The notes under the pieces: model-generated | Told to the model about the DNA's origin: nothing | Seen by the model: the letters and a program-made list of their open reading frames with translations, nothing else | Database searches by the model: none | Made by a program: the position numbers and the translations under genes | Part shown: in pieces, positions 15,257 through 17,156 of the stretch | Layout of the letters: each line of letters opens with the position of its first letter | Position numbering within the stretch: the stretch's first letter is position 1 | Source: a virus | Lineage: Duplodnaviria > Heunggongvirae > Uroviricota > Caudoviricetes | Length of the DNA stretch: 22,658 nt | Virus record (IMG/VR): IMGVR_UViG_2529292919_000022 | Direction: 5' to 3' (one strand)

Positions 15257-15838
15257 TTGATGATTAATTCAACCATTACCCCTGAACCTACATTAACAGG
15301 CATCCGTTTTGGTAATCGAATTATTGGTTATTCAACTGCGGTTCGCCAGATCGACAACGGTAACTATGACAAACGAATTCCGGACGGGCTCGATCTGATA
15401 GCTTGCATTATGGAAGGGATTGAAAGCGGCTGGTTTATGCCGTGTATTGAAAAACAAATCATCCTATGGCGCTGGCTTGTTGTCGCCGTGTTCATTGCTG
15501 AGGAGCAGGAGAAGAACGGGACTGTCGATGTTCAGAATGACAAGGGCGGCGTAGATACAGCCGTTGTATACACAGGAAAACCCGGTTCAATCAGCATTTA
15601 TCCATGGTCTGAGCGCTTCGCGCTCGCTAACCATATCGAGGCGGGCGCAATTGAAAAATACGGGCCTGACGTTGGCCAGCAGATGGCGCTGCGTATGTAT
15701 CAGGACATGGTTGTAACTGACGAGAAATGCGGATTCAGGCTGTCAGCGATGGGCCGGGAGGGACTCAACATACTACATGACAGCTTCATTGAACTGATTC
15801 AGAAAGACGGTATGCCAGACATGCCGGTTATGCACTGA
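15257..15838 (+). CDS. Hypothetical protein (193 aa)
   Basis: ORF track; AAGGAGAG RBS upstream; no recognisable domain; contains a short hydrophobic stretch ILWRWLVVAVFIA. Confidence 0.5.
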   Translation: MMINSTITPEPTLTGIRFGNRIIGYSTAVRQIDNGNYDKRIPDGLDLIACIMEGIESGWFMPCIEKQIILWRWLVVAVFIAEEQEKNGTVDVQNDKGGVDTAVVYTGKPGSISIYPWSERFALANHIEAGAIEKYGPDVGQQMALRMYQDMVVTDEKCGFRLSAMGREGLNILHDSFIELIQKDGMPDMPVMH

Positions 15839-15849
15839 GGTGGACGAAA

Positions 15850-16596
15850 ATGAACATAGTAACGATCAATAACAAACAGCTTCCGGCAGTCGAATATCGC
15901 GGTCAGCGTGTTGTGACGCTGGCGATGATTGATGAAGTCCACCAGCGACCGGAAGGAACAGCGCGTGCAGCATTCAACCGAAACCGTGAGCATTTCATCA
16001 GCGGTGTGGATTATGCCGAATTAGGTGCGGACGTAATACGTACGGACCTCCCGGAAGGAACATTCTCTAAATTTGCACCATCAGGGATTGTACTTTTTGA
16101 ATCAGGTTACCTGATGTTGACGAAGCCATTCAATGACGCCCTTGCCTGGCAGGTTCAGCGCGAACTGGTTAACAGCTACTTCCGCACTCGCACACCGCTA
16201 ACGGAAATCGAGATGATCGCTGCGATAGCCGCCGACGCTGTTCGTCAACAGAAGCGCCTGAATCATGTGGAAGAACAGCTCGAAACAGTCACAGAAGCGG
16301 TGGAAACCATCAAACGCGGAAATATGCGCGCCGGATATGTCGGTTATCGCCAGGTGGTCGCCAAAAGCGGAATGACTGATGCTAAGTGCCGCAATCTGGT
16401 CAATGCCTACAGCATCCCAACCGATACGCACGAATTTATGACACCAGATGGTCTTCTTTCGCGCCGGGCTATCGTGGAGCTGGAGCCATTCATGAAAGCA
16501 TTTCATCAGATGATGTCAGAGGCAGAGCCACGTGGTACCCGCTGGTATCACCCGAAGATGGGGCTGTTTCAGGTGATTGGTTGGGAGGGTAAATAA
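15850..16596 (+). CDS. KilA-N/ORF6N-like domain protein (antirepressor-like), 248 aa
   Basis: ORF track; GAGG RBS 9 nt upstream. The N-terminal ~110 aa (QRVVTLAMIDEVHQRPEGTARAAFNRNREHFISGVDYAEL...LFESGYLMLTKPFNDALAWQVQRELVNSYF) resembles ORF6N/KilA-N DNA-binding domains of phage antirepressor-type proteins. Confidence 0.5.
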   Translation: MNIVTINNKQLPAVEYRGQRVVTLAMIDEVHQRPEGTARAAFNRNREHFISGVDYAELGADVIRTDLPEGTFSKFAPSGIVLFESGYLMLTKPFNDALAWQVQRELVNSYFRTRTPLTEIEMIAAIAADAVRQQKRLNHVEEQLETVTEAVETIKRGNMRAGYVGYRQVVAKSGMTDAKCRNLVNAYSIPTDTHEFMTPDGLLSRRAIVELEPFMKAFHQMMSEAEPRGTRWYHPKMGLFQVIGWEGK

Positions 16597-16934
16597 TGTC
16601 ACTCATTACACAAAATTTCCGCCTCAATGCGCTGGCAAATCAGTATGCGGCGGCACTGCACAACCACATATCCGCCACCAGCGGTGGTCATTTCCTGATT
16701 AATGTCAATGGGCAATCCATACGAGTAAACATCATCGGTGGGGTTAAAGGCATCAGGGACTTAATCGATGGTTATGCTCTGAAGGCTATCAAAGAAAATT
16801 ACCCCCAATGGGAAGCCGTTGGTATTCAACTGTTAAGCAAATGCGTTCGTGGAAACGAGCTGACGCAAAGCGGCAAAGAAATCTGGCAGAGCATGGTCAA
16901 CGACATGAGCGATACCGTTATGGGGAACATGTAA
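16596..16934 (+). CDS. Hypothetical protein (112 aa)
   Basis: ORF track; GGAGG RBS; its start overlaps the previous stop (TAATG). Confidence 0.45.
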   Translation: MSLITQNFRLNALANQYAAALHNHISATSGGHFLINVNGQSIRVNIIGGVKGIRDLIDGYALKAIKENYPQWEAVGIQLLSKCVRGNELTQSGKEIWQSMVNDMSDTVMGNM

Positions 16935-17156
16935 ATGAAAATCCAATACCAGGACTATGGCGCCGTAGCGAACATCGTGATCACCAGTTCCTGCCTGACA
17001 TTGCAAAAGCATAACCGCGTTGTTGATGCGGTGCTGTTTAATGTACAGGGGATCTCTGAAAACCGCAGCGGCTTTTTCTGGGTTAAGTCATCGTTGTCAG
17101 GAAAAACACGCGACATCCTGCGCGCCTACAAAATCGTACAGCGGGAGGCAAAGTGA
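16935..17156 (+). CDS. Hypothetical protein (73 aa)
   Basis: ORF track; begins immediately after the previous stop with a GGGGA RBS. Confidence 0.4.
   Translation: MKIQYQDYGAVANIVITSSCLTLQKHNRVVDAVLFNVQGISENRSGFFWVKSSLSGKTRDILRAYKIVQREAK

Follow-up and report, generated by a model that had tools for sequence, protein, structure and literature searches.

The DNA discussed here is the stretch from 15257 to 17156 of IMG/VR record IMGVR_UViG_2529292919_000022, a 22,658-nucleotide (nt) sequence from a tailed virus (Caudoviricetes) that is called the window throughout, in which a first-pass annotation had seen a block of four coupled genes. These four open reading frames (ORF1 to ORF4) appear to be separately exchangeable genes in one long early-left operon of a lambdoid prophage of the Stx2f/phiP27 type (Stx, Shiga toxin), an explanation which, taken together with a regulatory role for ORF2 and a replication-modulating role for ORF1, we consider on balance probable. 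It is built on evidence that the genes are real, on their place in the operon, on their mosaic distribution, on the domains found in them and on remote homology, and every molecular activity is inferred. Upon inactivation of the S24 cI-like repressor, ORF1-4 would be co-transcribed from about 13387-13458 as part of a lambda-PL-like operon that runs from the repressor to xis/int.

The four ORFs do lie on the + strand where they had first been placed. ORF1 extends from an ATG at 15260 (or a TTG at 15257) to 15838 and encodes an acidic protein (isoelectric point 4.8) of 192 amino acids (aa). The 193 aa originally given are possible with the TTG start, and the ATG is most likely the true start because 192-aa homologues span ORF1 end to end; in RefSeq, intact ORF1 in Escherichia coli genomes is annotated at only 172 aa. 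ORF2 (15850-16596, +) encodes 248 aa, ORF3 (16596-16934, +) 112 aa and ORF4 (16935-17156, +) a basic protein of 73 aa (isoelectric point 9.9). Stops and starts do overlap or abut as had been described: the stop TAA of ORF2 and the start ATG of ORF3 share one base (TAATG), and the TAA of ORF3 is followed without a gap by the ATG of ORF4. An 11-nt spacer, within which GAGGTGG can be read, separates the ORF1 stop from the ORF2 ATG, and a Shine-Dalgarno-like sequence precedes every one of the four ORFs. These are not chance ORFs, since each has been assigned a PHROG family and since the ratio of non-synonymous to synonymous substitution rates (dN/dS), computed pairwise against homologues, is 0.09-0.18 for ORF1, 0.05-0.11 for ORF2, 0.15-0.24 for ORF4 and 0.21 (from few substitutions) for ORF3. 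By these measures they are real genes under purifying selection. In the deposited sequence of phage phi467 (L001, 16004-16581), ORF1 is split into two annotated coding sequences; the match there is 1899 bases long as against 1900 in the window, pointing to an insertion or deletion of 1 bp (base pair).

The block of four has no natural boundary, and the coupled run goes beyond 17156. The TGA of ORF4 shares one base with the ATG of a fifth ORF (17156-17251, +), which encodes a hydrophobic 31-aa peptide (MKSFLLSILFSLLLASVVFGTLIEYKFLMNY, grand average of hydropathy 1.38), is an annotated coding sequence in phi467 and was found at 10 of the 80 loci used for comparison (viral contigs in which ORF1 has a relative at 68-100% identity, each scored for every operon gene). 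The same dense packing extends upstream (14465-15226) and downstream (17156-18631). Translational coupling would be mere packing of the operon, and ORF1-4 would not form one machine.

How freely these genes are exchanged can be seen from their distribution. Among 50,697 phage records searched by tblastn, matches to ORF1 were found in 36, to ORF2 in 64 (only four of them full length, the rest partial), to ORF3 in two and to ORF4 in 95. As for the 80 contigs, a 119-aa gene upstream of ORF1 is present in all of them, a gene for a ParE-like toxin domain in 76, the C-terminal domain of ORF2 in 56, its ORF6N head in 37, ORF4 likewise in 37 and ORF3 in eight, all near-identical to the window; the two upstream genes thus stay with ORF1 more consistently than do ORF2-4. 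Downstream of ORF1, no fewer than 15 arrangements occur, including ORF1 then ORF2 then xis (19 loci), ORF1 then a Rha-headed protein with the ORF2 C-domain then ORF4 (15 loci), ORF1 then xis directly (eight loci) and the arrangement of the window (eight loci). Further afield, the gene behind a 27%-identical relative of ORF1 encodes an ORF6N protein whose C-terminus is different, and a 36%-identical relative (contig L106) is directly followed by a 40%-identical ORF4 homologue. Judged from these counts and arrangements, ORF1 and ORF4 belong to the backbone of such operons, and between them a regulator gene has repeatedly been inserted or swapped, ORF3 is a recent insert, and the four ORFs are a lineage-specific juxtaposition of exchangeable genes rather than one system. 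The idea of a four-gene unit, whose distribution in other prophages the first-pass annotation had proposed to look at, is not sustained by the rarity of ORF3, by the variable genes after ORF1 or by the continuation of the run into a fifth gene.

The gene order in the window is a cro-like gene (- strand), an S24 LexA-type repressor gene (12557-13324, +), a helix-turn-helix (HTH) gene, dense small genes, a DUF4222 gene, a DUF1233 excisionase gene and an integrase gene, and the same layout is annotated in phi467 and two E. coli genomes. The 1.9-kb stretch itself is 100% identical in E. coli 2015C-4136CT1 (within an Stx2f prophage) and F719, and 99.9% identical in phage phi467. Two sigma-70 promoter-like sites, recorded as overlapping (13387-13458, +), follow the S24 cI-like repressor gene and precede the first early-left gene, which starts at 13471: TTGACA-18-TAACAT at 13387-13416, which matches the consensus at 10 of 12 positions, and TTGACT-17-TAAATT at 13430-13458. 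From 13460 to 18700, a consensus scan of the + strand found no further sigma-70 promoter-like site, and the same interval holds no convincing terminator; no LexA box (CTGT-N8-ACAG, up to one mismatch) occurs in 14448-18785, and Rfam reported no family at threshold over the whole window. The sites at 13387-13458 are likely a PL-type promoter for the whole operon that holds ORF1-4. In lambda, a PL-type operon is repressed in the lysogen. Because of this layout, and because the only promoter-like sites are those at 13387-13458, ORF1-4 would be delayed-early genes, expressed on induction and silent in the lysogen. They resemble the accessory genes of the lambda PL operon (ral, sieB, kil, cIII, gam and the ea genes) in their position from repressor to xis/int, dense packing, high turnover and dispensable appearance; unlike these, they belong to an operon with no recognisable recombination module, and they share no sequence similarity with them.

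ORF2, the putative regulator among the four, is a composite protein. Its N-terminus (aa 14-92, nt 15889-16125) is an ORF6N domain (PF10543, E 5.9e-12, 46.2 bits against a cut-off of 27.8), which is also found in 120 of 120 close homologues among the matches listed. ORF6N is related to KilA-N at the superfamily level only, and KilA-N itself (PF04383) does not match ORF2 at E up to 0.1, so that of the ORF6N/KilA-N resemblance first reported for this protein the ORF6N half stands. The rest (aa ~114-248), which had been taken for an uncharacterised extension of about 130 aa, is indeed an extra region of that size, and a conserved domain at that, common to Rha-family and KilA-N regulators. Over 10 proteins with four kinds of N-terminal head, this domain has 21 invariant columns, and its conserved features are E..A..A, G..K..L and an invariant RWYHPKxGxF. 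It is fused to Phage_pRha heads in Klebsiella, Stx1a/Stx2a, phiP27, D6, Providencia and Edwardsiella phages, to a KilA-N head in Serratia BZS1 (where PF04383 does match, E 2.2e-20) and to an unassigned head in APSE. Its identity is 70-82% with the Rha-headed proteins of Klebsiella, Stx and phiP27 phages, and 31-48% with the Providencia, APSE, Edwardsiella and KilA-N-headed Serratia proteins. Among PHROGs, its counterparts are phrog_6610 (unknown function, E 1.3e-23) and portions of two families labelled 'anti-repressor'. In none of 240 relatives among the matches listed is it covered by a Pfam model, and a profile search returned 1010 proteins, the matches listed being near-identical E. coli Rha proteins. 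A likeness of RWYHPK to the GxWxHP of an HK97 KilA-N protein (E 0.12 over 11 residues) was rejected.

An AlphaFold2 model of ORF2, computed from an alignment of 33 sequences (predicted local distance difference test, pLDDT, 80.9), shows two folded domains and, between them, a less confidently predicted helix of 37 residues (aa 119-155, nt 16204-16314). The folded core of the C-domain (aa 163-240, nt 16336-16569) is modelled with a beta-alpha-alpha-beta-beta-alpha topology, and both predicted domains resemble DNA-binding folds. The reading to which we commit ourselves is that ORF2 is predicted to be a dimeric, two-headed DNA-binding phage regulator, with an ORF6N (KilA-N superfamily) head, a long helix that probably dimerises and a winged-helix-like C-domain. 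It would bind DNA and/or a repressor early in lytic development and so bias the lysis-lysogeny circuitry of its own or a co-resident prophage. In its head and swappable C-module, ORF2 is like the domain-shuffled ORF6N/KilA-N/Rha regulators (PF10543, PF04383, PF09669), which are often annotated Ant, Roi or Rha; it differs from them in that its C-module is not ANT/KilAC and is not in Pfam, and in that it sits in the early-left operon, neither at an immI locus nor after cro.

The main rival to a DNA-binding ORF2 is a protein-protein role, in which it would be a true antirepressor whose C-domain contacts a CI-type repressor instead of DNA, like P22 Ant, P1 Ant and the Gifsy antirepressors, and could induce co-resident prophages. 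We give this a real, if minor, chance. It draws on the PHROG families that match ORF2, which are labelled anti-repressor, and on the Rha-headed version of the protein found just after cro and beside another Ant gene in phiP27 and Stx phages. It also draws on the P1-like phage D6 (L011, 3483-4414), in which a Rha-headed C-domain protein (gp109) directly follows icd, the position of the P1 antirepressor (immI), and is annotated 'anti-repressor Ant'. D6 gp109 is about 71% identical to ORF2 over the C-domain, including RWYHPKMGxF; it differs in its Rha-type head in place of ORF6N and in its context downstream of icd, and its label is by position. HK97 Roi and the D6 protein have only the N-terminal Rha-type domain in common, and BLASTP of ORF2 against HK97 Roi was not significant. 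Against an antirepressor speak the two DNA-binding-like folds and the lack of an ANT/KilAC domain (PF03374 matched neither the whole of ORF2 nor, at E up to 1, aa 121-248 alone). ORF2 is also unlike the antirepressors under SOS control (of the Gifsy GfoA/GfhA, SPC32H Ant, N15 AntC and 186 Tum type) in that the scans described above found neither a promoter-like site of its own nor a LexA box. Nor is it set in a P1-type immI layout, since Rfam found no c4 antisense RNA and the gene upstream is ORF1 instead of icd. The literature searched (on ORF6N, phi467, Rha/Roi antirepressors, phage D6 and Cnr) held no characterised antirepressor with the ORF2 C-domain and no functional study of any of these proteins.

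ORF1 belongs to a family of 113 clusters at 50% identity among 1.8 billion proteins, whose members are stand-alone, about 190-210 aa long and essentially enterobacterial. The HMM and structure-based searches that the first-pass annotation had advised, which in ORF2 revealed the ORF6N domain, gave no structural match here: for the ORF1 fold, predicted from a 51-sequence alignment with high scores (pLDDT 93.6; predicted template modelling score, pTM, 0.88), no structural counterpart was found. Sequence searches of PDB chains with all four proteins and two family profiles returned nothing useful, and neither did a Pfam scan of the 51 family members or of longer members as possible fusions. The N-terminal ~110 aa are without a known relative. 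It is the C-terminal half (aa 114-192, nt 15599-15835) that offers a lead, a likely remote relation to ORF106 of satellite phage P4, annotated DUF5375 (PF17345), which is the gene directly 5' of the P4 alpha primase.

Several lines of evidence point to this relation. In a satellite-like element (L101-L103), a 36%-identical relative of ORF1 sits 4 nt 5' of a gene for an 887-aa Zn-ribbon/Toprim/DUF927 primase that is 38% identical to P4 alpha over 313 residues, and a second adjacency of an ORF1 relative and an alpha-type primase is found in L008, so that distant ORF1 relatives hold the position of ORF106 directly 5' of alpha-type primases. The primase-adjacent relative carries a faint PF17345 flag, and there are faint precomputed PF17345 matches in several family members. 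Aligned by hhalign, ORF1 aa 114-178 match ORF106 aa 36-101 over 65 columns with a probability of 62-63% and E 7e-5, the observed score of 30.7 comparing with a mean of 11.2 and a maximum of 17.7 for 200 shuffles of ORF106; hmmsearch gave E 7.5e-8 for the single comparison. Independent of the aligned block is the very end of the protein, a C-terminal His in 49 of 51 family members and P-[VITLM]-x-H in 35 of them, to be compared with KAPVLH in P4 ORF106, so that a P-V-x-His end is common to both. We regard it as likely, not proven, that the C-terminal half of ORF1 is homologous to P4 ORF106, from which ORF1 differs in being nearly twice as long, in its unrelated N-terminal half and, in lambdoid prophages, in its place in a leftward operon far from the replication genes. 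Two other P4 proteins, ORF151 and epsilon, were rejected as relatives of ORF1 (hhalign probability at most 0.2%), and a tblastn and viral-contig scan for diverse relatives of ORF106 found P4 itself only.

What ORF1 might do follows from what its presumed relative does. The cnr product reportedly binds alpha and limits P4 replication, and we take ORF106 to be Cnr. The plasmid copy number of P4 is controlled by cnr, a gene located between epsilon and alpha (PMC8628076). For replication, phages with ORF1 usually rely on a DEAD helicase and a 322-aa Toprim primase that has 28% identity to the N-terminus of P4 alpha. ORF1 would modulate this alpha-type primase/helicase replication module, typical of these phages and deleted from the window copy; that it is a modulator of an alpha-type initiator is a tentative proposal, which we think may well be wrong. 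A bolder version is a long shot: ORF1 would be an N-terminally extended Cnr-like protein, produced soon after induction, that binds the alpha-type primase-initiators of its own phage and also of resident P4-like or related satellites or of competing phages and throttles the rival replicon at initiation, and the ORF2 C-domain would be a new module for targeting repressors or DNA, employed by Rha, KilA-N and ORF6N regulators alike, a P1-like immI antirepressor among them.

A number of points weigh against the overall explanation that we favour. The Pfam threshold of PF17345 is missed by ORF1, by P0016 and by all 51 aligned members, the similarity of ORF1 to ORF106 spans only some 65-80 residues, and the functional reading depends on ORF106 being Cnr. 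ORF1 relatives are also found in Stx1a/Stx2a phages beside a lambda O-type replicon, and because of this the partnership with a primase is not obligatory. In lambdoid prophages, the window included, ORF1 and the replication genes belong to opposite operons. What the promoter scan found are matches to a consensus, and there may be internal or non-sigma-70 promoters as well; ORF3 and ORF4 are without any functional handle.

As for those two, ORF3 is phrog_37628 (E 5.5e-63) and is limited to the near-identical lineage and one other phage record; it would be a rare insert between ORF2 and ORF4. ORF4 is phrog_1001 (E 4.3e-33), often comes right after ORF1 or an ORF2-type regulator and is usually near xis, as would befit a widespread small early protein. 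Neither has a Pfam, NCBIfam, PADLOC or meaningful PDB match, and a match of ORF3 to designed beta-trefoils in PDB (E 3e-4 over 37 aa) was discarded as short, compositionally driven and non-informative. The first-pass verdict that none of the four proteins can be assigned holds for ORF3 and ORF4 and was too pessimistic for the ORF2 C-domain and for ORF1 with its likely remote homology. Confident annotation as standard recombination or replication proteins had been named as what would speak against an accessory function. ORF1-4 have no match to Red, RecET, Erf, Sak, Gam, O/P, primase or helicase families in Pfam, NCBIfam and PHROGs, and no fold match; the replication-linked similarity of ORF1 to ORF106 falls well short of a confident annotation.

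Among the explanations that bear on the small proteins as a group, the better one, which we nevertheless consider improbable, is that they, possibly ORF1 among them, are early counter-defence or host-takeover factors that inhibit host proteins, like lambda Ral, Gam, Kil and cIII. Operon position and expected timing are those of the lambda PL accessory genes, ORF1 is acidic and has no catalytic signature, the turnover of neighbouring genes is high, as is typical of arms-race genes, and ORF1-4 are small, stand-alone and under purifying selection. The argument is, however, purely positional; no similarity to known anti-restriction or nuclease-inhibitor families was found in Pfam or PHROGs, and ORF1 is better, if weakly, linked to P4 ORF106. 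Less probable still, and to our mind quite unlikely, is the suggestion of the first-pass annotation that ORF1-4 form a prophage defence or superinfection-exclusion module protecting the lysogen. The accessory position between the immunity region and xis/int, three unannotated proteins out of four and a ParE-like toxin-domain gene just upstream of ORF1 would fit such a module, and prophage accessory regions do carry defence genes (see PMC13043305 for an example). However, when ten proteins from 14465-18219 were scanned with PADLOC-DB 2.0, the only match was of ORF1 to Csx20, an unrelated Cas accessory model (E 0.038, 12 bits). No enzymatic or NTPase domain was found in ORF1-4 with Pfam and NCBIfam, the four genes do not co-occur as a set and have no separate promoter or terminator that we could find, and, on the lambda paradigm, silence of a PL-type operon is to be expected in the lysogen (weak evidence, since it comes from a consensus scan). 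That the ParE-like gene, encoded 33 nt upstream of ORF1, has ORF1 as its antitoxin is very improbable and was rejected, since the adjacency of the two is not conserved: across relatives they are usually parted by another gene, and distant ORF1 relatives have no ParE-like neighbour.

Upstream of ORF1, the operon contains the 119-aa gene (14465-14824, +; phrog_1737), a 69-aa gene (14824-15033, +; phrog_340), which resembles the C-terminal end of some 'anti-repressor' PHROGs, and the ParE-like toxin-domain gene (15038 or 15005 to 15226, +; 62-73 aa, PF24732 with E 9.9e-20, 'ParE family toxin-like protein' in RefSeq). The ParE-like gene overlaps or abuts the 69-aa gene, and the two are possibly a small toxin-antitoxin pair in the early-left operon; in distant relatives (phiP27 and Stx phages), the 69-aa gene is directly beside the ORF1 homologue, and the ParE-like gene is lacking. 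Right after the S24 repressor gene and the putative PL promoter comes a second HTH_3 (DicA-like) regulator, of 142 aa (13471-13899, +), and the pair of S24 repressor and HTH_3 regulator also occurs in distant relatives (L105, L106 and phiP27). The promoter scan gave no site in the sole sizeable non-coding gap of the operon, 14281-14464 (184 nt). Just 5' of the 119-aa gene, this gap holds a LexA-box-like sequence with one mismatch (CTGTTTCTCAGAAAAG, 14432-14447); the number of such sites over the whole window is not above chance.

The prophage itself has been through a good deal. An element of the insertion sequence (IS) family IS21 on the - strand (istA 11170-12192, istB 10391-11173; region 10324-12219) lies directly beside the cro-like gene and on its other side meets tail genes of a cdtI/mEp460-type phage, the homology of which stops at 10324, in the tape-measure region. 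The DUF1233 excisionase gene (18359-18631) is separated from the integrase gene (21540 onwards) by an inserted IS66-family element (18766-21381, -) with a 523-aa DDE transposase and ORFs of 115 and 225 aa. Past the end of the coupled run, the next gene (17260-17889, +; phrog_492 family) has an in-frame TAG at 17413-17415 in place of Trp52 (TGG to TAG); it is a single 209-aa coding sequence in phi467, and E. coli F719 has the same nonsense lesion as the window. Replication, Q, stx/lysis and head genes, present in phi467 and related prophages, are missing from the window. Because of these losses and the IS21 junction to the tail genes, the window is, by its gene content, a hybrid or deleted, degraded remnant of an Stx2f/phiP27-like E. 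coli prophage.

Relatives of ORF1 also turn up outside such prophages. In Enterobacterales contigs (L101-L103 and L008), the satellite-like element mentioned above combines AlpA, a 322-aa ORF6N protein, DUF4222, an ORF1-family gene, the P4-alpha-like primase (887 aa) and DUF1233. Because this repertoire is that of the early-left operon in the window, the comparison suggests that prophage early-left operons and satellite-like elements draw on one gene pool. Records labelled as non-enterobacterial include relatives of ORF1 at 72-76% protein identity in Aeromonas phage AsXd-1 (MH178096), Chryseobacterium sp. 18061 (L006) and a Pseudomonas marginalis plasmid (P0013), and a match at 83.5% DNA identity over ORF2-ORF3 in Elizabethkingia phage EKP1 (OM284015); contamination or host mis-assignment seems likely to be behind them.

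In conclusion, this locus is ordinary accessory cargo, as non-essential-looking as the first-pass annotation had supposed, and it fails as a candidate defence system. Its practical value is mostly one of annotation, with two modest gains in classification and a gene pool (ORF6N, DUF4222, the ORF1 family and DUF1233) common to prophages and satellite-like elements. The first gain is a regulator domain of about 130 aa, absent from Pfam and present in at least a thousand enterobacterial phage regulators, which can now be described as a unit. The second is a remote, multiply supported and testable link of the orphan ORF1 family, which is common in prophages of Enterobacter, Klebsiella, Salmonella and E. 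coli and occurs in Shiga-toxin phages too, to P4 ORF106/DUF5375 and alpha-type primases. If it is true that ORF2-type proteins affect the induction of Stx prophages, these regulators may also have a bearing on toxin release.

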